Shown here one piece after another: positions 4,793-26,238 of a stretch of 64,000 nucleotides of DNA. A program made the position numbers and the translations under genes. The notes under the pieces are model-generated. The model was not told the origin of the DNA, made no database searches, and worked only from the letters and a program-made list of their open reading frames with translations. The stretch lies in assembly GCA_035544015.1 (NCBI GenBank), contig DATKIP010000076.1:128299-192298 (forward strand), read 5' to 3'. The stretch is from Candidatus Saccharimonadia bacterium (lineage in GTDB: Bacteria > Patescibacteriota > Saccharimonadia > UBA4664). Numbering within the stretch: the stretch's first letter is position 1; each line of letters begins with the position of its first letter.

Positions 4793-4820
4793 GGATTAAG
4801 AGTATTTAAGGAGAGTCTGA

Positions 4821-5090: not shown

Positions 5091-5091
5091 C

Positions 5092-5691: not shown

Positions 5692-5787
5692 TTCCAGATG
5701 CCGCTAATGGTAAAACCAAACCAGATAGTTGTGAGCGTGGAGACCTTTTTGAGTACTTGCAGGTACGAAGCGAGGTGCAAACACTAT

Positions 5788-5822
5788 CAATAGAAAACGG
5801 GCTGAAGCCCGTTTTCTATTGT
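5788..5822. terminator. perfect 15-bp stem hairpin (caatagaaaacgggc-tgaa-gcccgttttctattg) between convergent genes
   Basis: Perfect inverted repeat seen directly in sequence. No strong U-tract on either side, so function as a terminator is inferred. Confidence 0.4.
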
Positions 5823-5841
5823 GACGGCATCAGAGCCCTAT

Positions 5842-6279: not shown

Positions 6280-6286
6280 AGCATTT

Positions 6287-6376
6287 TATAAACAAACTGT
6301 TTATACGGCATTGTTTTGAATGTATATGCAATCCCAAATATAAACAAGTCGTTTATATAACGATCTGTTTATATTT
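6287..6376. promoter_or_regulatory. operator-like palindromes TATAAACA-N3-TGTTTATA and TATAAACA-N4-GTTTATA plus a third half-site TGTTTATA, in the divergent radC/xre promoter region
   Basis: Read directly: tataaacaaactgtttata at 6287-6305, tataaacaagtcgtttata at 6340-6358, and tgtttata at 6366-6373. Confidence 0.45.
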
Positions 6377-6390
6377 CCTACGCTACAGGC

Positions 6391-6618
6391 ATGAGTAACA
6401 CACAAGAATCCAAGCAACTTATGGCCTTTGGCCGCAGACTAGCTGATGTACGGAAAAGCCGCGGGCTAACCCAGCAGCAGTTAGCAGAAAAGCTAAGTAT
6501 AAGCCTCGTATCCATCGGCTACATCGAAACAGGCAAACGCTGGCCGCGACTGGTAACCCTGCACCGGATTAGCGCTGCATTAGGCGTACGCCTCGAAGAA
6601 CTCTTTAAGGGGCTGTAG
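6391..6618 (+). CDS. XRE-family helix-turn-helix transcriptional regulator
   Basis: HTH signature RKSRGLTQQQLAEKLSISLVSIGYIETGKRWP. 75 aa. Confidence 0.8.
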   Translation: MSNTQESKQLMAFGRRLADVRKSRGLTQQQLAEKLSISLVSIGYIETGKRWPRLVTLHRISAALGVRLEELFKGL

Positions 6619-6818
6619 CCGACAAGCAACGTGCCAAGCGGCCATTTGGGAACACTTCCCTGCCGGCGCTCCATAGGGGATAATAGCAACAATACATTAG
6701 GAATCGTCATGAGTATCATGCCCTCTCACATCCAGTGACTGCCCGGCCGTAATGGCTAATCCTTCAGCATATTTCTGCTGTAAATAATTAGCAGCCATGA
6801 GCTGCTGAAGGATATAAC

Positions 6819-7724
6819 ATGTCAACACGATATTTCAATCACCGAGTCCAAAAAGCCCGACAATTCCTTGCTCAACGCATGTCCGGCGACACGCCAGAAC
6901 ATCCCGGGCTAACAACCTCATTTTGGAATTTACTCGAAAAAATTAAGCAGGATAGGGAAGCAGCGCTTGCCTTAGCCTACTCGCTCCTGGATACTTCGGC
7001 ACCATCCGAGCGCTTCTTTGCCGTTGTTTTGCTGGGTAAAATCTTCAACCCCACCGAGCGGCATCAGCGCGCCGAAGCCCGCCATATGATCGCAGTCTTG
7101 GCGGCCAGGGCCGCCCGCGAACGACACCCAGCTATCCTCACGCAAATCGGTTACGCCCTCGGCAAGCCGTATCTTCGTGAAGCCGTCCGGCCGCTCGTCA
7201 AACTGTCCCGCCATCCACACGAAGACGTTCGGTATGCCGCCACAGGTTCAATCGTGTCGGGTATTCATGAGCGGGCGCCAAAATATGCCCTAGATCGGCT
7301 ATTTGAGCTCATGCGCGATCCCGACCCAGACGTGCGCAATTGGGCCACTTTTGCCGTCGGGACACAGTTGGACATCGAAGCTAACAATAGTGACGCCATC
7401 CGCCAAGCGTTGCTCGACCGAACTCGCGACCGTCATTTTGAAACCCGCGCCGAAGCCTTTCGCGGCTTGGCTAGGCGAGGCGATCGCCGCGGAGTGCTAC
7501 CCTTAAAGCACTGGCTGGAACGCCAAGACCAGCAGGGCAAAACGATTTGGACTTGGGAGATCGAAGCCGCCGGCATATATGGCGATCCGATCTTTTATCC
7601 CGCGCTAACGAGCGTTGCCGAGTGGTGGAGGACAGACCAGCCAGTCATGAGCTGGGCACTGGCTCGCTGCCATCCCGATATGGAGATTCGGGACAGAACA
7701 TTGCTCGAAGACCAACTGTACTAA
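6819..7724 (+). CDS. HEAT/PBS-lyase-like repeat protein
   Basis: Repeated DP(D/N)xxVRxxAxxALG-type units (DPDPDVRNWATFAVG, HEDVRYAATGSI). SD aagga 7 nt upstream. Confidence 0.65.
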   Translation: MSTRYFNHRVQKARQFLAQRMSGDTPEHPGLTTSFWNLLEKIKQDREAALALAYSLLDTSAPSERFFAVVLLGKIFNPTERHQRAEARHMIAVLAARAARERHPAILTQIGYALGKPYLREAVRPLVKLSRHPHEDVRYAATGSIVSGIHERAPKYALDRLFELMRDPDPDVRNWATFAVGTQLDIEANNSDAIRQALLDRTRDRHFETRAEAFRGLARRGDRRGVLPLKHWLERQDQQGKTIWTWEIEAAGIYGDPIFYPALTSVAEWWRTDQPVMSWALARCHPDMEIRDRTLLEDQLY

Positions 7725-7840
7725 GCTTGCATTAATGTACTACTAATACTACAATAAATACCAAGAACATGAGTACGTTAACAGTTCGGCTAAGCACAAA
7801 ACACAAGCCCAAATTGCAGTACTCATAGTACAATAAAGTC

Positions 7841-8050
7841 ATGACACCAGTGCGACCAAGATTCCAAATCAACGCGGCTCCTGAAATACTCAACGAGGCC
7901 AAGGCCATTGCCTATAGTCGCGGGCTAAGTCTGACGGAATTTGTACTGCAAGCGCTCGCTAAAGACGGGAATGACAAGCTTAAAAAGCTCGTCGAAAAGG
8001 ACCTGGCTAACCGCACCCGGCCGGGCAATCCCTCTAAACCCAAATTCTGA
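7841..8050 (+). CDS. ribbon-helix-helix DNA-binding protein, DinJ/RelB-antitoxin-like (no cognate toxin seen)
   Basis: RFQINAAPEILNEAKAIAYSRGLSLTEFVLQAL matches the beta-strand plus two-helix RHH pattern of DinJ/RelB. Confidence 0.45.
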   Translation: MTPVRPRFQINAAPEILNEAKAIAYSRGLSLTEFVLQALAKDGNDKLKKLVEKDLANRTRPGNPSKPKF

Positions 8051-8138
8051 AAAAGCCATAACTTAGCCGAATTGCTACATTTCGCGAATGTTCGCTGAAA
8101 CTTGTTTTGATGGCAAATTACGGTAAGCGAGGGTAGAA

Positions 8139-8312
8139 ATGGGCAGAGTTAAAGGCGCAAAGAACAAAGAGAAGTCCCCTGAAATCTTCAGCATGACGAC
8201 AGACGATCGCATCACTCTCCTAGCCAACATTATCGTCGACGCCATCGCTGATAAGGAAACTCGAGAAGCCATTGACGCGGCCATGGCTAAAGAAGCCCAA
8301 GAGAAGCAATAG
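8139..8312 (+). CDS. 57-aa hypothetical protein immediately upstream of the recombinase (possible RDF/accessory)
   Basis: ATG preceded by gcgagggtagaa. Ends 11 nt before the recombinase start. Below the 60-aa cutoff of the ORF track. Confidence 0.3.
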   Translation: MGRVKGAKNKEKSPEIFSMTTDDRITLLANIIVDAIADKETREAIDAAMAKEAQEKQ

Positions 8313-8323
8313 GGGAGGGGAAT

Positions 8324-10033
8324 ATGCCGTCATTAGCCAACAAGAATGCCGTAGCCGCAATCCGAGTATCCACCGAGAAACAAGGCCGAGACGGCGATTC
8401 GCCCGAAGCTCAAAAAGAACAAATCGAACGCTATGCCGCCACCCAAGGCATCACAATCAAACAATACTTCGTATTTCTGGAATCTGCTTCCAAAGACCAG
8501 CAGCCAGTCCAGCCGGCCATCGACTACTGTAAGAATCCCAGGAACGACATCCAGCTCTTTATCATCAAATCCATCGATCGCTTCACGCGCGGTGGCTCAC
8601 ATGCCTATGGCGAGCTAACCGCCCAGCTCGACCATTGCCGGGTCAAACTCGTGGACATCTACGGTGTCATTAGCGGCCAAGAAATTAACACCCTCGATCA
8701 CCTCGGCTTCGAATACAAATGGAGCAAATACTCACCCAGCAAAAAATCGGAAATCCTCGAAGCCGAACGCGCCAAAGATGAACTCCGCGACATCATGAGC
8801 CGCATCATCGGCGCCGAAATCCGCTACACCCAAATGGGCTACTGGATGCGCCGTGCACCGTACGGCCTCATCAGCGAAAAAGCCGAAACCAAGCATGGCA
8901 AACGATGTGTGCTCAAGGCTCATCCCACCGAATCCAAGTACATCCTCCAGATGTTTGAGCTAAGCGCTAAGGGCACCCTCCATGACGAAGAAATCGTAGA
9001 CAAGCTCAACGAACTTGGCTTCAGAACCAGAGTGAAGTATATTCGCGACCAAAATGATAGGACTAAGGTCATTGCCAAAAGCGGGGGCAACCCGCTAACG
9101 GTGAAGGCAATGCACAAGTTACTTCGCAACCCCATCTACGCCGGCATCAACGCCGAGAAGTGGACAGGGGACAAGCCCATTAAGTGCGCCTTCCAAGGCC
9201 TCATCTCCGTCGATCTCTTCAATCGCGCCAACAAAGGCAAGAAGGTAATCGTTGAGAGCGCCAATGGCGAAATAGCCATTAGTACCAAACGACCACCCGA
9301 GCATCTGATTAACAAGGGTAAGCGTTATCCTGACTTTGCTTTCCGTTATCTACTTTGCCCCGATTGCCGTAAGCCACTCGTCGGCAGTGCTTCCCGTGGC
9401 AAATCCGGGAAGTACTATCCCGCCTACCATTGCGCACATCGTGGGCACTACTACCGTATACCTAAGCAGGAGCTGGAGGATCGAGTCGCCGAGTTTATCG
9501 GCAACCTTACCGTCTCTAGCGATCACCTCGATGCCGTCATGAATGCCGTCTCTGCTGAGTGGCATCTGCGCAACCAAAGCCAGCTCCAAGAGCTGGAGGG
9601 CATCGAGGAGCGCATTGCAGAGCTAAGAAAAGATGCTGTCGCCACCATGGACAAGATTCGCGTATTGAACTCACCAACCGCCCTTAAATTTATGGAGGAA
9701 GACCTCGTGAGAATAGAACAGCAAATCGAAGCCCTTACCGACGAGAAGGCCAAGAAAGAAGCCGAGAAACCGCACGAAATTAGCAAAGTCTTGGGAAGGG
9801 TCCGATATTTCGTGGAACACCTCGATAAATTGATCCTCCAACAGATAGACCCGATCAAAAAAGCCCAGCTTTTCGGCGTCATTTTCGACCAAATCCCAAC
9901 TGTCGATGAAATAAAATGTGGAACACCAAAAACACCCCTGTTTCCAGGAGTGAATGGCATCTTTGCGCTCGCAAATATGAATAAAGACTCTATGGTAGTC
10001 CCACGGGGAATCGAACCCCGGTTGCCAGGATGA
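8324..10033 (+). CDS. large serine recombinase (resolvase-type catalytic domain + recombinase domain + zinc ribbon + coiled coil)
   Basis: Catalytic motif AAIRVSTEKQ. Zinc ribbon CPDCRKP...YHCAHRGH. Long C-terminal coiled coil. SD gggagggga upstream. The last ~13 codons are the reverse complement of tRNA-Glu. Confidence 0.85.
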   Translation: MPSLANKNAVAAIRVSTEKQGRDGDSPEAQKEQIERYAATQGITIKQYFVFLESASKDQQPVQPAIDYCKNPRNDIQLFIIKSIDRFTRGGSHAYGELTAQLDHCRVKLVDIYGVISGQEINTLDHLGFEYKWSKYSPSKKSEILEAERAKDELRDIMSRIIGAEIRYTQMGYWMRRAPYGLISEKAETKHGKRCVLKAHPTESKYILQMFELSAKGTLHDEEIVDKLNELGFRTRVKYIRDQNDRTKVIAKSGGNPLTVKAMHKLLRNPIYAGINAEKWTGDKPIKCAFQGLISVDLFNRANKGKKVIVESANGEIAISTKRPPEHLINKGKRYPDFAFRYLLCPDCRKPLVGSASRGKSGKYYPAYHCAHRGHYYRIPKQELEDRVAEFIGNLTVSSDHLDAVMNAVSAEWHLRNQSQLQELEGIEERIAELRKDAVATMDKIRVLNSPTALKFMEEDLVRIEQQIEALTDEKAKKEAEKPHEISKVLGRVRYFVEHLDKLILQQIDPIKKAQLFGVIFDQIPTVDEIKCGTPKTPLFPGVNGIFALANMNKDSMVVPRGIEPRLPG

Positions 10034-10068
10034 AAACCTGGTGTCCTAACCGTTAGACGATGGGACCA
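9994..10068 (-). tRNA. tRNA-Glu (anticodon UUC)
   Basis: Reverse complement folds as a cloverleaf. Acceptor stem GGTCCCA/TGGGACT. D-arm GTCT-AACGGTTA-GGAC. Anticodon stem CCAGG/CCTGG with loop TTTTCAT (UUC). T-arm CGGGG-TTCGATT-CCCCG. Encoded CCA at the 3' end. Confidence 0.8.
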
Positions 10069-14020: not shown

Positions 14021-14166
14021 GATTCAAGCCCAGCGGTAAACTACCGGATTCCTATCATACCGCCCACACTGCATCCCGCATCAAGTCTTGAAATTCTCCC
14101 TCCCAACCCATCTCCCTACATTCCCGACCACCCCGCCCTGTAATTTTGCACAAAAGACCTCGCAGT

Positions 14167-15033
14167 ATGACTCTGGTAACATACGTACCCATGAGCACCC
14201 CCCTTGTATCTGTTGTTATCCCAACAAAAAACAGCATCCGTTTCCTCAAGGCCTGTCTGGCGTCCGTGAAAGAGCAGTCCTATAAAAACGTCGAGACGAT
14301 CGTCGTTGATGGTCAATCCACAGACGGAACCATTGAGCTCTGCAATAAAATGGGCGCTAAAGTTTTACAATATGATCCCAAAGTCAAAAAAGGATTTTTT
14401 GACGCCCCCTTCCGCAGAAACTATGGAGTCGAAAACGCTGGCGGCGAGTTAGTCTATTATGTAGACGCGGATATGGAATTAACAAAGAATGTTATCCGTG
14501 ACGCCGTAGAGCTTTGCACTGAATCCGGCAGTGATGCTGTAATAATTCCAGAAGACTCATTCGGCATTGGGGTATGGGCCCAAGCCAAAAACCTAGAAAG
14601 AAGATGCTACTGGGGCGACGACTCGGTCGAGGCGCCTCGTTTTCTAAAGCGCAGCGTATGGGTGCAACTGGGAGGCCTCGATACGAGCCTGGGAGGGGGA
14701 GGAGACGACTGGGATTTATACCAGAAGTTGAGAGATCACGGCTACACTGTCTCCAGAATCAAATCGCTAGTCATGCACAATGAGGGGCACTTGAGCCTCC
14801 GAAAACTTATGCGAAAGAGATTTATGTACGGGCGGGATTCAGCTCGGTACATTTCCAAACGGCCGGCCGCCGGTGTAAAAAGCTACTTTCCCATACGAAT
14901 GGCATATTTGAGAAATTGGAAGCTGTTCGCCCGTCGTCCCGTCGACGCCGCAGCCTTTATGGTTATGAGACTGGCCGAATATTCAGCAGGGTTTGTCGGG
15001 ATACTTTACTCGGTACTAAAGGGGAATGCATGA
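14167..15033 (+). CDS. GT2 family glycosyltransferase (start uncertain: TTG 14146, ATG 14167 or ATG 14191)
   Basis: VSVVIPTKN start and DGQSTDGT motif. YVDADMEL DxD motif. Confidence 0.75.
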   Translation: MTLVTYVPMSTPLVSVVIPTKNSIRFLKACLASVKEQSYKNVETIVVDGQSTDGTIELCNKMGAKVLQYDPKVKKGFFDAPFRRNYGVENAGGELVYYVDADMELTKNVIRDAVELCTESGSDAVIIPEDSFGIGVWAQAKNLERRCYWGDDSVEAPRFLKRSVWVQLGGLDTSLGGGGDDWDLYQKLRDHGYTVSRIKSLVMHNEGHLSLRKLMRKRFMYGRDSARYISKRPAAGVKSYFPIRMAYLRNWKLFARRPVDAAAFMVMRLAEYSAGFVGILYSVLKGNA

Positions 15034-15995
15034 AAGCTACGCAATTTTGGAAGAATAAAACTGTTTTAGTTGCCGGCGGCTTAGGATTCGTGGGTGCCCA
15101 TGTCATAGAGGAGCTCCTGCGGCAAGACGCAAAAGTAATCTGTCTCTACCGCGGGGGGGATACGAAATTTTTCCACAAACGCGGGCTAGACGTATCGAAT
15201 CTTACTTTCCAAAAGATAGATTTGCTTGATTCGCACGGGGTTAATTTAGTCACCCAAAATGCTGACGTTTTAATTAATTGTGCCGCCCTCGATGGAAACG
15301 CAGAATTTAAGCGAAAAAATGCCGCCAAGATACTCGATTCCAATTTAAGAATCGTCTCCAATCTTTTAAACGCCGCGGTCGAAAACTCCATCAGTGACGT
15401 GGTCCTCTTAAGTTCGGCGGAGGTGTACCCGGGACAAGTTAGTAATCCTATTCGCGAAAGTGATGACTATAGAAAAAATTGGGACTATACCGATAATGGC
15501 TATGTCTTATCCAAGAGGTTTTCAGAGATCATGGGAGAGGCCTTCCGATCTCAATACGGCATAAAAATCTATCATCCCCGTCCCGCAAATATTTATGGCC
15601 CCCGAGATCATTTTGGCTCTGCGATGAATCGCGTGATCCCCAGCATGATTAAAAAAATAGCCGACGATCAAGACGTCGAAATTTGGGGTGACGGCAGTCA
15701 AGTCAGGAGCTTCGTATACGTCACTGATGCCGCAAAAGGCATCTTGGGAATGGTCGAAAATGAATTTGACGATTATTTAAATATCGGGTCCCCCGAAGCG
15801 ATTTCGGTACTTGAGTTGGCAAACCGGATAGGTGATCTTCAGGGAAAAAAAGTCAAAGCAAACCTGGACACGAGCAAGCCTGGCGGGTCGGCGCGGCGAG
15901 TCCTAGACGTAGCAAATCATCTGAGGATGACCGGCGGAGAATATACGGATCTCAATAGCGGCATCGATCAAACCATTCAATGGTATCTTGCCTAG
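15030..15995 (+). CDS. NAD-dependent epimerase/dehydratase (extended SDR)
   Basis: Rossmann motif TVLVAGGLGFVGAHV. Catalytic YVLSK motif. SD aagggg upstream. ATGA overlap with the GT2 stop. Confidence 0.8.
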   Translation: MKATQFWKNKTVLVAGGLGFVGAHVIEELLRQDAKVICLYRGGDTKFFHKRGLDVSNLTFQKIDLLDSHGVNLVTQNADVLINCAALDGNAEFKRKNAAKILDSNLRIVSNLLNAAVENSISDVVLLSSAEVYPGQVSNPIRESDDYRKNWDYTDNGYVLSKRFSEIMGEAFRSQYGIKIYHPRPANIYGPRDHFGSAMNRVIPSMIKKIADDQDVEIWGDGSQVRSFVYVTDAAKGILGMVENEFDDYLNIGSPEAISVLELANRIGDLQGKKVKANLDTSKPGGSARRVLDVANHLRMTGGEYTDLNSGIDQTIQWYLA

Positions 15996-15996
15996 T

Positions 15997-17178
15997 ATGC
16001 GGGTAATTTTTTTCTCGTTTGGAATTTTAGAATACGGCGGAGGGTTAGAGAATTACCTCATTGCCACCGCGCCGGATTTAATACGTGGTCGGTATGTTGA
16101 CGAAGCCTCGATCATTACGGCTACACCTCGGCTAAATGAGGCCCTTCAACATCTGCTAACGTTGTATTACTTTAGGAAGCATTCAACCTCGACGATATAT
16201 CGAGAGAGCGCTAAAGACATCAAAATAAGGTTAGGAGCAGTCAAATATTTGCAGGCAGATTCCCTTCGGGATTTGCGGGAAAGACTGCAAAAGTACGACG
16301 TCGTATATACAAAAAATGAGATCATCGAACTGGCTATATTAAAACTCATTGGCTACAAGAACCTACCCCCGGTGGTGGTCGGGGCACACACCCCCGTCTA
16401 CTTTACGAACGCCCCCTCTGTGTCCGCAAAGCTTCATAATTTGATCTACGGCGGGTTTATTTATCGGTACCTGCTAAAAGGATCTGCCTACATCAAATGT
16501 AATAATCAAGAAGATATGGCCTTTGTTCAAAAAAAATTAAAATACAAAAACGCGGTGGTGATACATCATGGATTCGATATTACGGAGGGCTCGGTGCGAC
16601 GCAATCAAACTGATTCTCTCAATATTCTATTCGCCGGACGTCTTAGCGAGGCCAAAGGGGTCGATACGCTCGAAACTATAATTCAAACGCTCAGCAAGCA
16701 TGAACGATTCGAAGCATACAGATTCCGGATAGCAGGGAGCGGCGACGAAAATCTAGAATCCATAGCCGAATCGCTCGCAAGAAACTATCCCAACGTAGAA
16801 TATCTCGGACATGTCCCCGTCGCAGATATGCGGACATTATACGAATGGGCCGATATCTCCCTCATCCCGTCTCGATATGAGACGCTAAACAAGATAGCAG
16901 TTGAAACGGGCTTGGCATCCAAGATAGCTATAGCCTCGGATATATCGGGCCCTAGGGAAGTGATCGAAAATGAGAAAACGGGTTTTCTCGTCAGTCCAGA
17001 ACCAAAAGAATTCGCCGAGAAGATAATTGCATTGGACACTTTACGAAAGACGAATCGTGCAAAATTCAACTCGATTGGTCAAGCGGCAAGAGAAAAAATA
17101 AGCCGAGAATTTAACAAAAATCGCTCGTATATAGAATTGTCTGAGTTGCTTGAGAAGGCACGAGCTAATAGGCGATGA
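15997..17178 (+). CDS. glycosyltransferase family 4
   Basis: C-terminal GT-B motifs EAKGVDTL, RIAGSGDE, ETLNKIAVETGL...GFLV. Starts 2 nt after the epimerase stop. Confidence 0.75.
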   Translation: MRVIFFSFGILEYGGGLENYLIATAPDLIRGRYVDEASIITATPRLNEALQHLLTLYYFRKHSTSTIYRESAKDIKIRLGAVKYLQADSLRDLRERLQKYDVVYTKNEIIELAILKLIGYKNLPPVVVGAHTPVYFTNAPSVSAKLHNLIYGGFIYRYLLKGSAYIKCNNQEDMAFVQKKLKYKNAVVIHHGFDITEGSVRRNQTDSLNILFAGRLSEAKGVDTLETIIQTLSKHERFEAYRFRIAGSGDENLESIAESLARNYPNVEYLGHVPVADMRTLYEWADISLIPSRYETLNKIAVETGLASKIAIASDISGPREVIENEKTGFLVSPEPKEFAEKIIALDTLRKTNRAKFNSIGQAAREKISREFNKNRSYIELSELLEKARANRR

Positions 17179-20100
17179 ATAAGAAGAATTTATACCTGGT
17201 CGGCTTCATCATACTTCTGAACATCCTGGTTTATCGAGTGTGGTTTCTTGGGTTCGGGATAATGACTCATGGGGATTGGAGCTATGTCTCTCGCGTAAGC
17301 GCCGATACGCTGAGAATCCATTATTTTTCACTTTGGCTGTCAGACTATTCGTTTGGGCGCATTCTCGTCGACGTTGGGCAGGCCCCCACCTATGCATTTT
17401 ATGGGTTCTTGTCAGCTGCCCTGCAGATCGATTTTGCCCTGGCCGAAAGGCTCGTGCACCTCTGGCCAGCAGTGCTCCTCACTCCGCTCGGGGCCTTTTT
17501 TCTGGTATGGAAGATTTTTAAAAACCGAATCGCAGCCATACTGGGCGCCATCATATATTCCTGTAATACCTATTTTTTAATCCTACTGACCGGGCATCTA
17601 ACGCTCGCGGGCGCATATGCGCTTGCCCCGTGGGTGCTGCTCGCATATTTAGAGTTCTTAGAGAAGGAGAGCCTTCGTTATGGCATCTGGGCTGGCCTCC
17701 TGCTCTCGGCGTCGTCGGCCTATGAACCCCGAGCCGCATACATAATTGCCTGGATCCTCGTCTTCGCCGCCGCCGGCCAGGGCGTCGCAAAAATCATTGA
17801 TCATAAAAAAATTAACGAGATCATAAGCTATACGCTGCGCTCAATTATTCCGTTTGCCATATTCGGGCTGCTCAATTTCTTTTGGATTTTTGCTTTCACC
17901 AAAATCAACGGTGCAATTGGCGCGGATATTCTGTCGCGAGGGTTATTCGGAAATGCGTTTTACGACATTAATGAAGCCCTAACCCTGTTTCACCCCTTCT
18001 GGAACGGTGGACGACCAATACCATTTATTATTAACCACATCCCATTGTATTTCTGGCTGCTTCCCGTCGCCGCAACTCTCGGGATATTCTTGAATAAATC
18101 CAGAAGAACGATAATTTTCTTTGCCACACTTGGCATTCTGGGAATATTTCTAACAAAACAGGTAGACACTCCCTTTCCGCAGGCGTATCAATGGCTCTAC
18201 GCGCACTTTCCCGGCTTCGGTGCGTATAGAGAGGCGAGCAAATTCTACCTACTAATCGCGTTATCGTATACGGTTCTCATCCCCGGCGCATATATTGCGT
18301 TGAAGAAAATCGGCCATAAGTACCTCTCCCTAGGCTTTGCGGCAGCTCTCGCGAGCATTATGGTAGTAAACTTAGCTCCCATCATAAGCGGTACGATCCA
18401 GACCACGTTCGCAAGTCGTACAATCCCAGAGTCTTATACGGCTCTCAACAAATTGTTGGACGAATCGTCTTTTTCCAGGACGCTGTGGGCCCCCAAGGAC
18501 TCGCGATGGGCGCTAGACTCCGACATGCACCCGAAAGTAGGGGCAATCGATATAGCGCAATCCTCGTGGGTCGATTTCATCAAACGCACCGTGGATGGTA
18601 GCTACCTGACCACCGAGGAGCAGGCCATGGAGGTTTTCCAGAATCCGTTTGCACCCGAGCTTCTAGCGGACGGAGTCATTAAATATGTCGTAGTCCCGTT
18701 AAGGGATACTAAAAATGACGATGATTTCTTCATTAATTACGGCGATATCCGAAGCAACTACACCGATTTGCTCGATAAAATGCCGTTCTTAAAACGGGTT
18801 AATACTGGCATCAACGACATCGCACTCTACCAAAACACGAATGTTAAGCCCTATGTCTCAACCTTCAGCAATCTATATTCAATCCCGGGCATGCCAGCAC
18901 TCCAGGGATCGCTCAACTTTGCGAAACAGGCCCTAGGAGAGAAAGATTTCAACTTTGTGAGTGGCGAAGAGAAGACTTATGCTCGAAAGATAACGGACTT
19001 ATTTGGCACTTTCGAAGACATGCAACCAACTCGGGACCGCGAGCTTGCTAGCAAGGAGGACCTGAGGGGGTCAACGATTTATCGGCCAGCCAGATTTAGC
19101 GAGTACGAATATCGCGTGGCGGGGAATGAACTACAGATTTTGTCGCGAGATCTCAGAAAAAACCTAGGTGCAACCAGGGGAGTAGCCAACGCGGCTAGTT
19201 TTTCAATTATAAAACGGATAAATGTTGCACGAGAGCCCGACATATATCTGGATATTGACGGAAAAATTACAAAACTTAACGCGAGCGACAACCAGGAGCA
19301 TTATCTTGGGTCTAACGTTGAAAAAATTGGAGTCTACTCTGCCACGACAGGCAATAACGTCATCAACGGATCGTTCGAAAGCGGTTTATGGCAGGACAAA
19401 GTACAAGATTGCAATAATTACGACGGTAGTCCCTCGATATCCGTGAGACAAAGTTCGGTGGCTTCCGATGGAAAATACTCTCTAAATATGACGGCACAGA
19501 AACACATGGCCTGTACCGCCTCAGCGCCCTTACCAATTCGAGCAGATTTTTATCTCACAGCCATGGATTACAAAATACACAATGGTACCTACGCTGCGTA
19601 CCAGATCAGCAACTCGGAAACAAAGGAAGTCTTGGGAAAATATAACCTGCGAGCGCCCGATGATGCGTGGCGCACGTATGCCACGATTCAGGCTCGTCCC
19701 TCTGGGGCTACCAATCTCGGCGTTACTCTCATGGCAAGACCATCTGAGCAGCAGAGTAAGCTCGCGGAAACAAATTACGACAATGTAAAAATCGTTGGCC
19801 TAAAAAAGCTCGATTCTCTGGATTTTGGACAGAACCAATTCGAGCCCTTCCAGAGTGGCCCGACGGCGTATCGAGATCAGGCCTATACGTACGAGAACAT
19901 CGTTCCGAATGGTTCGTTCGAAAATGGGCTTTGGGAAAAAAATGTTGGCGATTGCGGCGCGTATGACGACAAGCCCAAGATAGGGATGAATATAAGTACA
20001 AAAGCGAGCGATGGTAGGCGATCCCTCGAGCTCCATGCTTCGCGGCACATTGCCTGCACCAGCGCCAATAATATCCCCATTGAGCCAAATGGGACTTACC

Positions 20101-20837
20101 AAATTACTTTTGACTACACCACGAACGGCACGCAGAGTGCCGGATATTCCGTAATTTTAGACGATCCTCAGAAGACGAAAATCACAGAGCGTATATCCAT
20201 CGCCTCAACGATATGGAAGAAATACCAGTCGACGTTTGTAATTCCTCCCGGCGCGAAAATTGCGAACATTACCTTATACGCATATTCAGAAGATGATGGC
20301 GCAGAGTCAGTCGTACGTTATGACGACCTTCGAGTGATAAAGACCCCTGATATCACCGGCAAATATTTCGCCCTGACAAACGCGAACATTACAGTGAAGC
20401 CACCAAAAGACATTAGCTTTAAGGCTCCAAGTCAAACAGCGAGAACGATCTCAATACGGGCTGCCACCACCCCGTTCTACCTCGCAATGGCCGAGGCTTA
20501 CCATCCGGATTGGCGTCTCGAAATCAACAACGGCAAGGTGAAGGGGCTGGGATCGTGGCTGCCGTGGGCCAAGCCCGATGCAGTCGCTGCGGGGGATCAC
20601 TTCAAGCTCAATGATTTCGAAAACGGCTGGTACGTGGATGTCGATAAACTCTGCGGACAGCAGAAGCTCTGCACTCAAAATGCCGATGGTTCATACGATC
20701 TCGAGATGGTAGCCGAATTTACGCCGCAGCGATGGTTCTACATCGGGCTCATCGTGAGCGGCGGCACCCTCGTGGCGTGCATCGGATTCCTGGCTTGGGA
20801 CTGGCGCCGACGACGACATGGGCAGGATAGAGGCTAG
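17175..20837 (+). CDS. large polytopic membrane protein (GT-C/YfhO-like N-terminal domain) with two tandem CBM-like/galactose-binding-like modules and a C-terminal TM anchor
   Basis: About 14 TM helices in the first 420 aa. Duplicated module NGSFE(S/N)GLW..DC..YD..P.I.....AS DG(K/R)(Y/R)SL......H(M/I)ACT(A/S). Final TM helix FYIGLIVSGGTLVACIGFLAW. ATGA overlap with the upstream gene. Confidence 0.7.
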   Translation: MNKKNLYLVGFIILLNILVYRVWFLGFGIMTHGDWSYVSRVSADTLRIHYFSLWLSDYSFGRILVDVGQAPTYAFYGFLSAALQIDFALAERLVHLWPAVLLTPLGAFFLVWKIFKNRIAAILGAIIYSCNTYFLILLTGHLTLAGAYALAPWVLLAYLEFLEKESLRYGIWAGLLLSASSAYEPRAAYIIAWILVFAAAGQGVAKIIDHKKINEIISYTLRSIIPFAIFGLLNFFWIFAFTKINGAIGADILSRGLFGNAFYDINEALTLFHPFWNGGRPIPFIINHIPLYFWLLPVAATLGIFLNKSRRTIIFFATLGILGIFLTKQVDTPFPQAYQWLYAHFPGFGAYREASKFYLLIALSYTVLIPGAYIALKKIGHKYLSLGFAAALASIMVVNLAPIISGTIQTTFASRTIPESYTALNKLLDESSFSRTLWAPKDSRWALDSDMHPKVGAIDIAQSSWVDFIKRTVDGSYLTTEEQAMEVFQNPFAPELLADGVIKYVVVPLRDTKNDDDFFINYGDIRSNYTDLLDKMPFLKRVNTGINDIALYQNTNVKPYVSTFSNLYSIPGMPALQGSLNFAKQALGEKDFNFVSGEEKTYARKITDLFGTFEDMQPTRDRELASKEDLRGSTIYRPARFSEYEYRVAGNELQILSRDLRKNLGATRGVANAASFSIIKRINVAREPDIYLDIDGKITKLNASDNQEHYLGSNVEKIGVYSATTGNNVINGSFESGLWQDKVQDCNNYDGSPSISVRQSSVASDGKYSLNMTAQKHMACTASAPLPIRADFYLTAMDYKIHNGTYAAYQISNSETKEVLGKYNLRAPDDAWRTYATIQARPSGATNLGVTLMARPSEQQSKLAETNYDNVKIVGLKKLDSLDFGQNQFEPFQSGPTAYRDQAYTYENIVPNGSFENGLWEKNVGDCGAYDDKPKIGMNISTKASDGRRSLELHASRHIACTSANNIPIEPNGTYQITFDYTTNGTQSAGYSVILDDPQKTKITERISIASTIWKKYQSTFVIPPGAKIANITLYAYSEDDGAESVVRYDDLRVIKTPDITGKYFALTNANITVKPPKDISFKAPSQTARTISIRAATTPFYLAMAEAYHPDWRLEINNGKVKGLGSWLPWAKPDAVAAGDHFKLNDFENGWYVDVDKLCGQQKLCTQNADGSYDLEMVAEFTPQRWFYIGLIVSGGTLVACIGFLAWDWRRRRHGQDRG

Positions 20838-20843
20838 CTACCC

Positions 20844-20936: not shown

Positions 20937-22244
20937 ATGCACTTCGTGAAATCTTCTGTTAATGTTGCTGTGATTGGAACCGGATATGTTGGCCTCACCA
21001 CGGGGGCGTGCTTGGCGAGCCTGGGGCACGATGTGGTGTGCGTGGATGTGGACGAGCGCAAAATTGAACAATTGCGGGCTGGGCACATGCCTATCATGGA
21101 GGCCGGCCTCGAGGAATTAGTGCAGGCCGGCGTGGCGGCTGGCCGGCTGCGGTTTGTGGTGGGCGCGGCCGGAGTGGTAGGGGACCGGCGCGTGGTGATG
21201 ATGTGTGTACCCACCCCGCAGGCCGCCGACGGCTCGGCCAACCTCAGCTACCTCATGGCGGCTACGGCCGAAATCAAGGATCACCTCGCCCCCGGCGCCG
21301 TGGTGGTCAACAAATCCACCGTGCCGGTGGGCACCGCCGAGCGGGTGGCGCAGGCACTGGGCCGCGCCGACGTGGCCGTGGCGTCCAATCCCGAATTTTT
21401 GCGCGAAGGCACTGCCGTGGCCGACTTTTTGGGCCCCGACCGCATCGTGATCGGCTCGGCCGACCCGGCAGCGGCTCGGGTGGTGGCTGGGCTGTATGGC
21501 GGCGTCGAGGCCCCCGTGATGCTCGTAGACGCGCGCACTGCCGAACTCATTAAGTATGCCTCAAATGCCTTTCTAGCGACCAAAATATCGTTTGCCAACT
21601 CCATCAGCGCCATCAGCGAGGAGCTCGGCGCCAACGCCCACGATGTGCTGGCCGGGGTGGGCGCCGATAGCCGCATTGGGCCGCAGTTTTTGCAGCCCGG
21701 ACCCGGCTGGGGCGGATCGTGTTTTCCCAAGGACACGCAGGCACTCATGGGGCTGGCGGCCTCGGTGGGGTACGAATTTGAACTGATGCAGGCCGTGGTG
21801 CGCGCCAACGCCGCCCAAACCGAGCGCATGGTAGAGCTGGTGCGGCGGCTCGCCGGCGGCCGGCTGGCCGGTGCCCGCGTGGCGGTGTGGGGCCTGAGCT
21901 TCAAGGCCGGCACCGACGACACCCGCGAGTCGCCGGCGCTGCGCGTCATCGCCGCGCTGCTGGCAGCCGGCGCCACCGTGGCCGCCTACGACCCCGCCGC
22001 CTCGGCGCCCGCCGGCGTGATCGCGGCTGCTAGCGCCCTCGAGGCGGCCGACGGCGCCGACGTGCTGGCGGTGCTCACCGAGTGGCCCGAGTTTGCCGCC
22101 GTGAGCCCCGCCGAGGTGGCGCAGCGCCTGGCGCACCGGCGCGTGCTCGACACCCGCCGGCTCCTCGACGCCGAGGCCTACACCGGTTTTGGCTTTACCA
22201 TGCACATTGTGGGCGTCGGCCACCTTGACCATAAGCGGTCTTAA
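20937..22244 (+). CDS. ugd: UDP-glucose 6-dehydrogenase (nucleotide-sugar dehydrogenase)
   Basis: N-terminal VAVIGTGYVGLTTGACLA Rossmann motif. Catalytic GGSCFPKDT motif. An alternative GTG start at 20946 is possible. Confidence 0.85.
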   Translation: MHFVKSSVNVAVIGTGYVGLTTGACLASLGHDVVCVDVDERKIEQLRAGHMPIMEAGLEELVQAGVAAGRLRFVVGAAGVVGDRRVVMMCVPTPQAADGSANLSYLMAATAEIKDHLAPGAVVVNKSTVPVGTAERVAQALGRADVAVASNPEFLREGTAVADFLGPDRIVIGSADPAAARVVAGLYGGVEAPVMLVDARTAELIKYASNAFLATKISFANSISAISEELGANAHDVLAGVGADSRIGPQFLQPGPGWGGSCFPKDTQALMGLAASVGYEFELMQAVVRANAAQTERMVELVRRLAGGRLAGARVAVWGLSFKAGTDDTRESPALRVIAALLAAGATVAAYDPAASAPAGVIAAASALEAADGADVLAVLTEWPEFAAVSPAEVAQRLAHRRVLDTRRLLDAEAYTGFGFTMHIVGVGHLDHKRS

Positions 22245-22247
22245 TGT
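22219..22247 (+). promoter_or_regulatory. sigma70-like promoter TTGACC-N17-CATAAT
   Basis: Read directly. Overlaps the ugd stop. About 55 nt upstream of the ATG at 22305. Confidence 0.35.
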
Positions 22248-22304
22248 CATAATGAAATAACGCAGCGTCCCGCTGCTTGTACATTCGTCAGATTGGAGAC
22301 GGCC

Positions 22305-22715
22305 ATGCCGTATAGTCTCGTACCCGAGTTGGTGCCCTCAGAGGCGCCGGTGCACGGCGCCTACGTCGGCGTGCTCAGGCCCAGTTCGGTGTGGGGCCAG
22401 CCCACGATCGAGGCATTGGAGTGGTTCCTGGGCCACGACTGCCACGCTGTGGTCGTCGACTTCGACGTCAACCCCAACAGCCTCAGGTACACCCTCCGGG
22501 GCGCGCAGGGGGAGCGATTGGCCCCCAGGGTTGTGCAGCTCCTGGCTAGCGGCGGCATCCGGTCGTCCACCATGGGCCGCTTTGAGGCCCTCCACCTGGC
22601 GGCCGTCGTGAATCTGGGGGTCCGGACTCTGCTCTGCGACCGCAAGCGCGAGGCCCCCGACGGCTTCCCGGTGCTGGTGAGCCCCATCGAGCCGATTACC
22701 GCCCGCCCCCGCTGA
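22305..22715 (+). CDS. hypothetical protein (first of four small genes each followed by a related hairpin)
   Basis: GGAG 7 nt upstream of the ATG at 22305. The ORF track shows a TTG start at 22293. Confidence 0.45.
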   Translation: MPYSLVPELVPSEAPVHGAYVGVLRPSSVWGQPTIEALEWFLGHDCHAVVVDFDVNPNSLRYTLRGAQGERLAPRVVQLLASGGIRSSTMGRFEALHLAAVVNLGVRTLLCDRKREAPDGFPVLVSPIEPITARPR

Positions 22716-22730
22716 CCCCTCCAACCAGAT

Positions 22731-22770
22731 CTGGCGAATGCCCCCGGCGCACATGTTGCGCCGGGGGCTA
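22731..22770 (+). terminator. GC hairpin cccccggcgca-catgt-tgcgccggggg followed by CTACGCTGTTTTG (REP-like family copy 1)
   Basis: Perfect 11-bp stem followed by a T-run. Confidence 0.5.
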
Positions 22771-22867
22771 CGCTGTTTTGCGGCTTGACAAAAGCCAAAA
22801 ATAGTACAATGCTGAGTCAGCAGCGGCCGTCTGGCCGCTCATTCCGCTAGATACCCGCTTGGAGGGG

Positions 22868-23368
22868 ATGCACATGTTTGCCAGCCCCAACGGCGAGCCC
22901 CGGTTCGCCTGCACGCTGGGAGAGACCGTTGCTCCATTTCTCCCCCGCACGCACCTCGACCAACCCCTACCCTCGTGCGGGCCAGATGACGACCCCGTGG
23001 TCATCACCGCCGCCTACGAGGTGATCGGCGAGCCCCTCACGCCGGCGCTCGCCAGCCGCGTCGCCGCCGTGCTCGAGGCCCACCCCGCCGCCTGCCTCGT
23101 CGCGGTGTCGGCCGAAGCATTCAGCTTCCAGTTGCCGGGCCCCGTGGGCGAGCCCCTGCCGGCGCCGGTCCCCGAGCTGTTGGGCTGGCCGGCCGGCACT
23201 GTGTTGGATTGGTCTCGCGCCGATTCGATGCTGGAATCGGTGAAAGCTGCCGTGGCGGCTGCGCTGCTCAACGACGACTTGCCCGACCACATCGTCAACC
23301 TCACCCTCCGCACGTACGCGGCACCCGGTAGCGACGCCGTCGCCGGCGTACAGAGGACGCGACGGTAG
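22868..23368 (+). CDS. hypothetical protein
   Basis: SD ggagggg upstream of the ATG at 22868. Pro/Ala-rich. ORF track start is 22859. Confidence 0.4.
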   Translation: MHMFASPNGEPRFACTLGETVAPFLPRTHLDQPLPSCGPDDDPVVITAAYEVIGEPLTPALASRVAAVLEAHPAACLVAVSAEAFSFQLPGPVGEPLPAPVPELLGWPAGTVLDWSRADSMLESVKAAVAAALLNDDLPDHIVNLTLRTYAAPGSDAVAGVQRTRR

Positions 23369-23430
23369 TTTGAGCTTCGCCACATCGCTCGGCCCTAACC
23401 CTGCCGACCCCTTGTCCCTCAATCTAGCGA

Positions 23431-23461
23431 TGATCCCCGGCGCGCATCGTGCGCCGGGGAT
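23431..23461 (+). repeat. GC hairpin gatccccggcgcgca-tcg-tgcgccggggatc (REP-like family copy 2)
   Basis: Near-perfect inverted repeat. Sequence is related to copies 1 and 3. Confidence 0.45.
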
Positions 23462-23575
23462 CCGTCATGTTGGGGGCAGCGCTCTGGACCCATTGACCGC
23501 CGGCATATTAAATGCCATAATGGTCGTCCGCAGCAACCGCTGTGCATCTGTCGGATCACAGAAGTGAGGGGTTCG

Positions 23576-23992
23576 TTGACGCCACTCGTCGGCCTTCACC
23601 AGATGTGGGGCGGAGACACCGGCCCGCACGGTGGCAGGTTCACGTTTTTCCTCGCCGACTCCACCGGGCAACAGCCCGCTCAACCGGTCGAGGCGTACAA
23701 AATTCCTGATCCCACCGCCGCCGCGTTAGGAGGGTATCTCAACGCTCTGGCCGGAGTTACCGCCAATCTCGGCCAGCTCACGGTCGTATATTTCCTGCGT
23801 CCGGAAGAGTGGCCCCCCGACCGCCGCCTGAGGCCCGAAACCGTCCGCAAGAAAATGCGTGACGCCATCACCGGCGTCGCCATTCGGGCATTCAACCACA
23901 ACCGGCTCGTTGAGCCCGCCAGGATCGGCCCAATCTACACGGCCGTCACCCCGCCGCCGTCCCCACCGCTCCCGCCCCCCGACCAAACCTGA
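23576..23992 (+). CDS. hypothetical protein (start uncertain: GTG 23564 or TTG 23576)
   Basis: ORF with GAGGGG upstream. C-terminal Pro-rich tail. Confidence 0.35.
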   Translation: MTPLVGLHQMWGGDTGPHGGRFTFFLADSTGQQPAQPVEAYKIPDPTAAALGGYLNALAGVTANLGQLTVVYFLRPEEWPPDRRLRPETVRKKMRDAITGVAIRAFNHNRLVEPARIGPIYTAVTPPPSPPLPPPDQT

Positions 23993-24001
23993 TCCGACCC
24001 G

Positions 24002-24028
24002 CCCCCGGCGCGCACGTTGCGCCGGGGG
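24002..24028 (+). repeat. GC hairpin cccccggcgcgca-cg-ttgcgccggggg (REP-like family copy 3)
   Basis: Follows the 23992 stop by 10 nt. Shares an ATCnrGCGA..CCCCGGCGC leader with copies 1 and 2. Confidence 0.45.
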
Positions 24029-24048
24029 TTGAGTCTGTTAAGCCAAAG

Positions 24049-24077
24049 TTGATTCCAGGAAGCATTAGTAGTATAAT
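24049..24077 (+). promoter_or_regulatory. sigma70-like promoter TTGATT-N17-TATAAT
   Basis: Read directly. About 60 nt upstream of the ATG at 24137, which has an AAGGAG SD. Confidence 0.45.
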
Positions 24078-24136
24078 AACCAAATGGCGAAACTACCTTC
24101 GCCGTCGTCAGAACGAGTGCAAAGGAGCACAGGCTC

Positions 24137-24484
24137 ATGACTACCCTGGAAAGAGGGACCGAACATGTCGAAACCGAGCCGGTCGAGATCGAGCTAGAGC
24201 CTTCCACCGACGGTGGGACACTCCGCGCTACTGTCGGATTGACGGTAGCCGACATCCACGCCGCAATCCTCGTGCAGCTCCATCGACAGCCTGCGGGCCT
24301 AGCGGCCGTAATGAGGCTCAACGTGGTGAATAACCGGACGTTCGAGTTCACCGTGCTCTACGGTGCTGATGTCGGAGCCGTCACGGGACGGCTCCTCCAG
24401 GCGGTCTCGACCGTCTTCGCGAGTGCCCTGGGCACCCCGGTCAGCCTTGGCCCTCGGGCTTACCGGCTGGCCCCGCGAGCCTGA
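24137..24484 (+). CDS. small protein, possibly Asp23/Gls24 (DUF322) family
   Basis: Promoter and AAGGAG SD upstream. Pattern FEFTVLYGADVGAVTGRLLQAVSTVFASALGTPV resembles the Asp23 core. Family assignment is tentative. Confidence 0.45.
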   Translation: MTTLERGTEHVETEPVEIELEPSTDGGTLRATVGLTVADIHAAILVQLHRQPAGLAAVMRLNVVNNRTFEFTVLYGADVGAVTGRLLQAVSTVFASALGTPVSLGPRAYRLAPRA

Positions 24485-24606
24485 GTCCACGCAACAAACC
24501 CACGCGTCCGCTCAATGTTCACGCCACAAGCACAACACCCTGACGGTAAGCCCCTGGTATCCGCAACCGCGGAGGCCGGGGGCTACGTCTTTGGTACACT
24601 GTCTGC

Positions 24607-26238
24607 ATGCATCATTCCTCTCAAATTATTCGCGCACGGCCGTGGCTAGTGTTTCTGGGACTCGCCCTGATCGTACTCGGTCCGCTGCTGCTGCCGGGGT
24701 ATGTGCTCACGGTTGATCTGAGCTGGGGTCCGCACATGGCTGCTTCCGATATGCTCAGCAACACCGCCCCGCTGTGGTGGCTCATTCGAGCGCTCAGTGT
24801 GGTGCTGCCGGGCTGGGTGGTCGAGAAGCTCGTGCTCGTGGGGTTGCCGGTGCTAACGGGGGTGGGCATGTGGCGATTGGCGGCGCGTCGGTCGCCGGGC
24901 TGGTCGGCCTACGCGGCCGGCCTCATGTACGTGGTCAACCCCTTCACCTACGAACGGCTCATGGCCGGCCAATGGCTCGTGCTGGCCGGCTACGCGTTGT
25001 TGCCCTGGCTGGTGGATGCCCTGCTGCGGCTCCTTGAGCGTCCCGGCGCGCGGCGGGCGCTGGTGCTCGGGGCCTGGGCGGTCGGCCTGGGCATGGCGTC
25101 GCTGCACCTGCTGCCCATGGCCGCGCTACTGCTCGCCGCCGTCATCGCCGCCAGCGCCTGGGGCCGAGGGTGGCGGCCGCACACCGGACGCTGGCTGGCA
25201 CTGGCCACGGCCCTGTGGCTGGCGGCCGCCAGCGCCTGGCTCGTGCCCTGGCTGCTGCACCGTTCGGCGGCAGCCCGCGCCGTGGCCGGCTTCGACGCCG
25301 GGCAGTTCGAGGCCTTCCGCACCACCGCCGGCCCCCTCGGCGCGCCGGCCGCCGTGGCCGCGCTCCAGGGCTTTTGGGGCGAGCGCACCGGCCTGGTGGT
25401 GCCCGGCTCGAGCACGGGCGCATGGTTTTGGCTTGCTGCAGCCACAATACTCATCTTAGCCATCATCGGCCTCGTGCTAGCAGTGCGCCGGCGCGATCGG
25501 CTCGGGCTGGCACTGGCCGTCGCGGCTAGCCTGGCCTGGCTGCTCGCCATTGGTGTCGCTTGGCCGCCCACCGCGGCGCTCACGCACCTTCTCGTCGATC
25601 ACCTGCCGTTTTATCGCGGCTACCGTGAGCCCCAAAAGTGGGCGGCGCTCATCGCGCTGGCCTATGCCTACTTGGCGTCCGGTGCGCTGGCCGCTGCCGG
25701 CACTCGGCTCCAGCCCTTCTGGCGGCGCGGCCTCCTGGCAGCTACGGCCGTGCTGGTGTTTGCCTGGGCGCCGCTGCTGCCGTGGGGAGCGGCCGGCCAG
25801 CTCACCGCCACGGCCTATCCCGCCGGCTGGTCCGATCTCAATGCGCGGCTGAACGCTCTGCCGGCAGCCCCGCCCGGACATCCCGACACACTTATGTTGC
25901 CATGGCATCAATATATCTACCTCGATTTCGCCCATCGTCCCGTTGCCAACCCCTCAGCGCAGTTTTTTGACCGTCCAGGTATTGTCTCGAACGACCCCGA
26001 GCTGCCCGGTGTACCTCCCGATTCAGATTTAGGCATTGTCAATAAAATACAAAATGATGTCATAGATCGCCGATTTTTTGAGCATAATGCCGGTTCTAGA
26101 TTACGGGCCCTCGGGGTACACTACGTTGTGCTCATAAAGGTGTCGGACTGGCAAAACTACGGTTGGCTCCGCGCTCAGAGCGATCTTACCTTAGTCGCGG
26201 AGACCCCCGATTGGCAGCTATACCAGGCCATCCCATGA
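24607..26238 (+). CDS. polytopic membrane protein, GT-C/YfhO-like (paralogous to the N-terminal domain of the 17175 protein)
   Basis: 543 aa with more than 12 TM helices. Shares the motif pattern (D/V)(W/L)SWGPH...L(W/S)... with the 17175..20837 N-terminus. Confidence 0.6.
   Translation: MHHSSQIIRARPWLVFLGLALIVLGPLLLPGYVLTVDLSWGPHMAASDMLSNTAPLWWLIRALSVVLPGWVVEKLVLVGLPVLTGVGMWRLAARRSPGWSAYAAGLMYVVNPFTYERLMAGQWLVLAGYALLPWLVDALLRLLERPGARRALVLGAWAVGLGMASLHLLPMAALLLAAVIAASAWGRGWRPHTGRWLALATALWLAAASAWLVPWLLHRSAAARAVAGFDAGQFEAFRTTAGPLGAPAAVAALQGFWGERTGLVVPGSSTGAWFWLAAATILILAIIGLVLAVRRRDRLGLALAVAASLAWLLAIGVAWPPTAALTHLLVDHLPFYRGYREPQKWAALIALAYAYLASGALAAAGTRLQPFWRRGLLAATAVLVFAWAPLLPWGAAGQLTATAYPAGWSDLNARLNALPAAPPGHPDTLMLPWHQYIYLDFAHRPVANPSAQFFDRPGIVSNDPELPGVPPDSDLGIVNKIQNDVIDRRFFEHNAGSRLRALGVHYVVLIKVSDWQNYGWLRAQSDLTLVAETPDWQLYQAIP

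Follow-up and report, generated by a model that had tools for sequence, protein, structure and literature searches.

A 2.3-kb locus in the genome of a bacterium labeled by NCBI as 'Candidatus Saccharimonadia bacterium' carries four small orphan genes in a row, each followed by a stable GC-rich hairpin; three of these hairpins are homologous copies of one unit, the fourth is a diverged relative, and the family is strictly local in the sequence scanned. The locus lies in the 64,000-nt stretch of contig DATKIP010000076.1 that was analyzed here (hereafter, the window), whose position 1 corresponds approximately to position 128,299 of a metagenomic contig of 320 kb (European Nucleotide Archive ERZ27251635, k141_318506), and it is placed between the gene for UDP-glucose dehydrogenase (ugd) and that for an MmpA-like membrane protein. 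The four genes are probably best understood as autonomous transcription units whose terminators, or 3'-end hairpins, have been duplicated locally. No new class of repetitive element comes to light here, and the finding, while real, is a fairly ordinary one.

Homologous hairpins behind four orphan genes

The three copies of the unit occupy positions 22722-22784, 23415-23477 and 23985-24045, all on the forward strand, with upper stems at 22740-22768 (12 bp, with a loop of 5), 23432-23462 (12-14 bp) and 24001-24029 (10-12 bp); they are near-identical GC-rich stem-loops with a spacing of 550-690 bp. An initial annotation of this stretch had placed three hairpins here, and all three exist, but the first had been set about 10 nt away from its true upper stem. 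Together with the fourth hairpin they share the same orientation on the sense strand, one per gene end, with stop-to-stem distances of 24, 63, 8 and 64 nt for genes 1-4. The upper stems of copies 1-3 alone are predicted to fold at -26 to -29 kcal/mol and the hairpin segments of 66-76 nt at -31 to -45 kcal/mol (-43 kcal/mol for the extended fold of copy 2), with fold z-scores of -4.0 to -5.7; the RNAfold check that the initial annotation had proposed thus puts them well above chance. Their core, CCCGGCGC-N7-GCGCCGGG, occurs exactly three times in the 64 kb against 0.26 expected, a count equaled in none of 100 shuffles. The proposal that a single hairpin family sits at the 3' ends of these genes is supported. 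No match for the hairpins was found in Rfam, even at E <= 10.

The repeated unit, at about 60-75 nt, is longer than a minimal terminator. The similar stretch begins about 40 nt 5' of the stem (CCCYGCYGACCCC ... ATCTRGCGA) and continues on its 3' side for about 15 nt (TGTT..G..GC), and pairwise local alignments of the three gene-end regions reach z = 9-12 with none of 500 shuffles doing as well, the units being 63-70% identical to one another. The unit takes in the final codons of the upstream open reading frame (ORF) in copies 1 and 3, extending in copy 1 across the stop codon. A leader had been described as common to all three; ATCTRGCGA is indeed present in copies 1 and 2, but copy 3 has just GATCCGAC. 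In the consensus, the unit folds as an extended hairpin whose lower stem has 6 bp, its middle stem 3 bp and its upper stem 12 bp, the last being a perfect helix without extrahelical bases. In the alignment of the three sequences 92% of the cells are paired, as against 38-48% in slid-partner controls; four pairs are changed on both sides. Among them are one position of the lower stem (AU/CG/UA) and, in copy 2, compensatory changes at the upper-stem base, where AU/UA stands in place of GC/CG. G-U pairs are also present, and conservation tracks base-pairing, the lower stem included. The pairing and the compensatory changes in these three sequences are suggestive of a structure that has been kept.

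The fourth hairpin (24549-24584, forward strand, -29.7 kcal/mol) shares with copy 1 an identical 13-nt 3' arm plus tail, GCCGGGGGCTACG, along with the outer stem GCCCCyGG...CCGGGGGC and the 3' tail CTACG, and differs from it in the apical stem-loop. Described earlier as a degenerate fourth copy, it is a complete hairpin, though one whose match to the covariance model of the family is not significant (10 bits, E = 2.2). On the minus strand the two hairpins that share this tail, copies 1 and 4, begin with GTAG; these are the only two of the four with such a head. In none of the four did the terminator consensus scan find a U-tract directly 3' of the stem. The first copy had been read as a terminator with a T-tract, and a terminator-like role for it still fits; its TTTT, on the other hand, lies 9 nt 3' of the stem and pairs within the lower stem in the consensus fold.

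The genes that these hairpins follow (locus tags VMT30_04495-04510, proteins HVQ44195.1-HVQ44198.1) are all on the forward strand. Gene 1 (VMT30_04495, HVQ44195.1; 22305-22715, 136 aa) has a Shine-Dalgarno (SD) site GGAG at 22295 and GC contents of 0.69, 0.49 and 0.89 at the three codon positions; gene 2 (HVQ44196.1; 22874-23368, 164 aa, or 166 from an ATG at 22868) has the SD site GGAGGGG and a third-position GC (GC3) of 0.85; gene 3 (HVQ44197.1; 23576-23992, 138 aa from a TTG start, or 142 from a GTG at 23564) has GAGGGG and 0.76; and gene 4 (HVQ44198.1; 24137-24484, 115 aa) has AAGGAG and 0.72. SD sequences thus stand 5-10 nt 5' of the start codon in four of four cases, and the codon-position pattern (GC1 of about 0.7, GC2 of about 0.5, GC3 of 0.72-0.89) is that of the neighboring genes. 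With this periodicity, the SD sites and the promoters described below, the four ORFs look like real genes, judged from their sequence.

The initial annotation had taken them for small hypothetical genes with no recognizable function, and so they appear here: no meaningful match for the four proteins was found in Pfam, PHROG, PADLOC or NCBIfam. Among 5.8 billion proteins searched by word index, nothing but the query came up for genes 1-3, and the same holds for gene 4 among 1.84 billion representatives scanned in full with HMMER; the 90% clusters of the four proteins contain only alternative start-codon calls from the same metagenome-assembled genome. An origin of the genes in phages or plasmids was rejected, as no phage or plasmid DNA similarity of the locus was found. 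Nor are the proteins detectably similar to one another by BLASTP, by Smith-Waterman alignment against shuffles (z <= 1.5) or by hhalign (probability <= 0.9%), and membership of one tandem paralogous family is not detectable for them. An Asp23-like fold had been suggested for the product of gene 4, and this finds no backing: at E <= 10 Pfam offers nothing except a chance match to MtrA, and the AlphaFold (AF2) single-sequence model, which has a strand-strand-helix-strand-strand-helix order, has low confidence (predicted local distance difference test, pLDDT, 59) and no significant neighbor in a Foldseek search of the PDB, where the best E-value was 0.014 and TM <= 0.47, to unrelated alpha/beta proteins. 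The corresponding model of gene 1 has a pLDDT of 41, and both low-confidence models contain a beta-alpha-beta-beta-alpha core. With models this poor and the fold search uninformative, assigning a function to the orphan proteins from structure was dropped.

Upstream of the genes, canonical sigma70 promoter sites were found at three places against 0.5 expected, serving three of the four genes, in agreement with the initial annotation. TTGACC-N17-CATAAT, with the TG of an extended -10 element, precedes gene 1 (22225-22253, overlapping the end of ugd) and gene 3 (23493-23521), and TTGATT-N17-TATAAT precedes gene 4 (24049-24077). For gene 2 there is a putative, non-canonical promoter, TTGACA and TACAAT with a 14-nt spacer (22785-22810), which does not come up in the consensus promoter scan. 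Each promoter is followed by a short stem-loop in the 5' untranslated region (UTR): GCAGCG-TCC-CGCTGC for gene 1 (22262-22276), directly 3' of the -10 element; AGCGGCC-GTCT-GGCCGCT for gene 2 (22822-22839); and TGGCGAA-ACTACC-TTCGCCG for gene 4 (24085-24104). That of gene 3, GCAGC-AAC-CGCTGTGC (23530-23545), is weak; it was read from the sequence, resembles that of gene 1 and is not the minimum free energy structure given by RNAfold. All these elements are on the forward strand.

Local distribution of the unit and a second repeated hairpin

Further copies of the unit were sought with a covariance model built on the alignment of its 63 nt and run with filters off over about 76 kb of the 320-kb contig, that is, the window and about 12 kb of additional contig. 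Beyond copies 1-3 there were none in this sequence; the next-best matches, at 12-15 bits, are other hairpins. A wider scan for the core and loop consensus gave 38 loci in 596 Gb of species-representative genomes (GTDB) and 51 loci in JGI metagenomes, and a looser core pattern gave 44 loci in IMG/VR. Every one of these loci is a single site, and they come from unrelated taxa (Streptomyces, Oscillospiraceae, Chloroflexota and others), no genome with multiple copies of the core being found in any of the three collections. When full units were compared with all of these loci by BLAST, only the core of about 30 nt was held in common and the flanks were unrelated. Thus, the core is a generic GC-rich hairpin with repeated independent appearances, and the unit of 60-75 nt is unique to the locus.

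These results bear directly on the proposal that the hairpins belong to a repetitive extragenic palindromic (REP)-like element. The defining short GC-rich imperfect palindrome outside genes is there, with units that partly overlap the end codons of genes 1 and 3. In the roughly 76 kb, in contrast, there are no dispersed copies, no association with a REP-associated tyrosine transposase (RAYT; the precomputed Pfam tables of called genes hold no Y1_Tnp family), and no clusters in alternating orientation with a conserved GTAG head that would resemble bacterial interspersed mosaic elements (BIMEs), the copies standing in one orientation with one per intergenic region. A REP-like dispersed family is ruled out for the sampled sequence, with all three (plus one) copies lying within 22.7-24.6 kb, and the REP-like label cannot be upheld. 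As far as the accessible sequence reaches, the hairpins are a local family of terminator-like stem-loops and not a genome-wide REP element. The initial annotation had itself named a consensus unique to this locus, beside ORFs that are not conserved, as the pattern that would point instead to a locally duplicated intergenic segment; such a pattern is what the sampled 76 kb and the public scans present, and local duplication, combined with the terminator-like reading, fits it best.

A parallel from within the same window helps to place this. When the best hairpin after each called gene end was taken, about 15 strong GC-rich hairpins were obtained; those outside the locus likewise lack U-tracts, and each has its own sequence with the exception of one pair. 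The hairpin GGGCGGGGCGGCCACAATGGCTGCCCCGCCCC at 44602-44642 has a second copy, 95% identical, at 45474-45514, the two lying 3' of a gene for a 246-aa hypothetical protein and of its tandem duplicate, which is split into ORFs of 103 and 157 aa (window 43845-45514). The proteins of these tandem paralogues are 40-43% identical and their coding DNA is 50-70% identical. Thus, when genes of this genome are duplicated locally, the terminator hairpins stay alike for longer than the coding sequences do, and by extrapolation units at 63-70% identity would be expected beside coding sequences that can no longer be aligned. In both cases of repeated hairpins in the window the copies are adjacent, not scattered. 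An AT-rich promoter-like stretch lies 3' of the hairpin at 44602-44642.

Explanations for the repeated hairpins

In the explanation that we favor, each unit would open with an AT-rich sigma70 promoter, followed by a short stem-loop at the 5' terminus of the transcript and an SD site, and its ORF of 115-164 aa would be succeeded by a long extended hairpin rich in GC. Initiation would be of the sigma70 type at the AT-rich promoter island, and each gene would be monocistronic. It is as part of the sense RNA that the hairpins most likely function; their putative role is that of terminators, of 3'-end protection, or both, insulating the next promoter that starts 16-30 nt downstream (16, 30 and 20 nt from hairpin to -35 element before genes 2, 3 and 4). 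As to origin, a local duplication might have involved a tandem gene-plus-terminator cassette or, alternatively, a local copying or conversion of the terminator segment, with selection keeping the paired stem while the coding sequences diverged or had never been related. The confinement of the hairpins to the 3' ends of these ORFs, always in the sense orientation, speaks for this, as do their high stability, the significant similarity and pairing of the units, the lack of further copies in the roughly 76 kb scanned, the gene-like features of the ORFs and the tandem pair in the same window.

Several observations weigh against it. With a stable GC-rich stem-loop soon after the stop codon on the coding strand and no adjoining U-rich tract, the hairpins are not canonical intrinsic terminators and rather resemble the U-tract-less gene-end hairpins common in high-GC bacteria. 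The four proteins are mutually dissimilar, and therefore a duplication of whole cassettes cannot be demonstrated; similarity among the promoter and 5'-UTR modules beyond the consensus hexamers is likewise not significant (best z = 2.7). The strand asymmetry of hairpin folding is mixed, which leaves room for a role at the DNA level. Finally, the sampled sequence amounts to about 76 kb of a 320-kb contig, so that a sparse dispersed family is possible.

This last point is where a mobile origin would enter, with the hairpins as a young or sparse palindrome of the REP type or of the kind of miniature inverted-repeat transposable elements, mobilized by a RAYT or another transposase elsewhere in the genome and inserted behind adjacent genes. 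Many REPs start with GTAG followed by a palindrome. The minus strand of copies 1 and 4 reads in this way, the imperfect palindrome is GC-rich and extragenic, the unit exceeds a minimal terminator, the ORFs that it follows are unrelated, and the sequence scanned is a minor part of the genome. Nevertheless, a mobile element is unlikely: only two of the four copies have the GTAG head, no copy occurs in the scanned sequence outside the 2.3-kb locus, the single orientation with one copy per gene end and no BIME-like clusters is at odds with such elements, the Y1 transposase family is missing from the gene tables of that sequence, no genome, metagenome or viral contig scanned has the unit beyond its generic core, and the sole other repeated hairpin of the window belongs to a tandem gene duplication. 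That same tandem pair, with hairpins far more alike than the flanking genes, might also be cited for gene conversion between neighboring intergenic regions, by which independent terminators with no common cassette origin would have been made alike; the confinement of similarity to the terminator unit, to the exclusion of the ORFs and promoter modules, is what such conversion would leave. However, conversion requires prior similarity in order to start, and the copies differ at 30-37% of the positions of the unit, which has the look of divergence and not of recent homogenization. From a single genome conversion and local duplication are not separable, and we regard conversion as quite unlikely.

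The remaining explanations give the hairpins a role as DNA sites. Unrelated orphan ORFs of small size and like orientation, each with a homologous imperfect hairpin at 550-690-bp spacing and with units that overlap the ORF ends, recall integron cassettes captured singly, and the hairpins might then be attC-like sites of an integron-like array or of a cluster of attC sites lacking integron-integrases (CALIN) in a bacterium of the candidate phyla radiation (CPR). TGTT is conserved at the 3' edge of the unit and copy 3 has an exact GTTRRRY; on closer comparison, however, GTTRRRY is found downstream of only one of the three hairpins and an exact RYYYAAC upstream of none, the alignment shows no conserved AAC position, no extrahelical bases interrupt the perfect 12-bp helix of the upper stem, and the spacers are asymmetric between the two sides. 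Moreover, the genes have their own promoters (canonical in three of four), as opposed to the mostly promoterless cassettes that are expressed from Pc, and the called-gene Pfam tables contain no tyrosine recombinase in the roughly 76 kb, where the only recombinase is of the large serine type (8324-10033) and lies 12 kb from the locus beside a tRNA-Glu. The identification as attC sites was rejected on the R'' (RYYYAAC) and R' (GTTRRRY) core motifs, and an integron-like array is highly improbable; there is just as slight a chance that the units are recombination sites of an undescribed, attC-like but non-canonical system of cassette capture, in which genes with their own promoters would be acquired singly and the recombinase would be encoded outside the 76 kb. 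A perfect inverted repeat, CCCCGGCGC-N7-GCGCCGGGG, upstream of the promoters of genes 2-4 might instead suggest operators for a dimeric regulator that coordinates the promoters downstream. This, too, is very improbable: the distance to the -35 element varies, the promoter of gene 1 has no palindrome upstream, GC-rich arms of 12 bp are atypical for operators, and conservation that tracks base-pairing, with G-U pairs and a compensated lower stem, is in keeping with a single strand that folds, not with a duplex operator.

Read as local terminator-like duplications, the locus offers a delimited set of modules, each with promoter, 5' stem-loop, SD site, ORF and terminator-like hairpin, in a high-GC genome of Saccharimonadia. 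We know of no transcript maps for CPR bacteria. The modules might be used as a template for spotting the boundaries of transcription units in this group, a practical value that is modest. The pair at 44.6/45.5 kb provides an internal calibration in that terminator hairpins are recognizable long after duplicated genes diverge, and hairpin homology could thus serve to trace tandem duplications of long ago and how orphan genes originated.

Genomic setting and comparison with known systems

Across the whole window nearly all genes of at least 200 aa are on the forward strand, and the GC skew is negative throughout, with the cumulative skew steadily declining. Minus-strand hypothetical genes form one short run at about 57.9-60.0 kb, with strong hairpins at its bounds (57877-57905, about 58450-58480 and 59283-59328). 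The longest perfect hairpins of the window, each with a stem of 15 bp, are at 5788-5821 and at 52619-52655; the latter is 3' of an AMIN-like gene, and the former, CAATAGAAAACGGGC-TGAA-GCCCGTTTTCTATTG, looks like a bidirectional terminator. It lies within a low-GC stretch (49-57%) that covers window positions 1-10067, reaches about 2.5 kb to the left of the window and is likely an integrated island. This stretch codes for a 2355-aa PA14 and RHS/YD-repeat toxin-like protein (ending at 4526), small ORFs, a helix-turn-helix protein and a HEAT-repeat protein, and the 3' end of the serine recombinase gene overlaps tRNA-Glu(ttc) (9993-10067) on the opposite strand.

The four-gene locus itself adjoins no integrase or transposase gene in the gene tables. 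Upstream of it is a polysaccharide-synthesis cluster of glycosyltransferases, an RmlD-like epimerase, a 1220-aa protein with a carbohydrate-binding module (CBM) and, as the immediate neighbor, the UDP-glucose dehydrogenase (ugd, 20937-22244). The glycosyltransferase and epimerase genes together with the CBM_4_9 protein (14100-20840) have a GC content of only 45-49% and a GC3 of 0.47-0.56, as against 64-71% GC in the adjoining ugd, the four orphan genes and the membrane-protein gene, a compositional mosaic which suggests that one or both blocks are foreign. Downstream, the gene for the 543-aa MmpA-like membrane protein (24607-26238) is followed on its 3' side by those for pyruvate kinase, phosphoglycerate kinase (PGK) and triosephosphate isomerase (TIM). 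The membrane protein matches NCBIfam NF053599, 'MmpA family trehalose lipid delivery protein', at E 3.7e-55 and 187.5 bits, below the cut-off of 210 bits. The family has been described from Corynebacterineae (PMC8698533). Such a match is unexpected in a genome of Saccharimonadia; the gene may have been transferred from an actinobacterial host, or the family may be broader. This gene has no SD site, the fourth hairpin ends just 22 nt upstream of its ATG, and an extended -10-like motif, TGGTACACT (24592-24609), ends 6 nt 5' of the ATG; its transcript may be leaderless.

Several known systems might be compared with the locus. The 'I-shaped' factor-independent terminators, which lack a U-tract and are described for high-GC Actinobacteria, are similar in being strong GC-rich stem-loops after the stop codon, in the sense orientation, in runs of unidirectional genes free of convergent ones and ahead of the next promoter; in contrast to them, the unit studied here has additional lower stems and a conserved leader, its three copies are homologous rather than independently evolved, and its role as a terminator is putative. 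With the REP and BIME elements of Enterobacteria and Pseudomonas the locus shares short GC-rich imperfect palindromes at gene ends, two of them with GTAG on the opposite strand, but its hairpins are undispersed, with three or four within 2.3 kb in one orientation and no RAYT in the sampled region. A parallel with integron attC sites and CALINs lies in the array of small ORFs on one strand, unrelated to one another, with a homologous imperfect hairpin behind each at a spacing of about 0.55-0.7 kb; by contrast, the R''/R' core motifs are not matched here beyond the one exact R', the upper stem is perfect, the genes have their own promoters, and no integron integrase was seen in the roughly 76 kb. 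Phage 'morons' resemble the units in that each ORF stands between a sigma70 promoter of its own and a stem-loop, with the units inserted between two longer genes; here, by contrast, the context is a chromosomal one of polysaccharide synthesis and central metabolism, with no prophage and no PHROG, phage or plasmid matches. A further counterpart is the tandem pair at 43845-45514, where a locally repeated GC-rich hairpin again stands 3' of adjacent small hypothetical genes and has an AT-rich promoter-like stretch behind it. The paralogy of those genes is still recognizable at 40-43% identity, with hairpins at 95%, whereas at the four-gene locus the genes are unalignable and the units stand at 63-70%.

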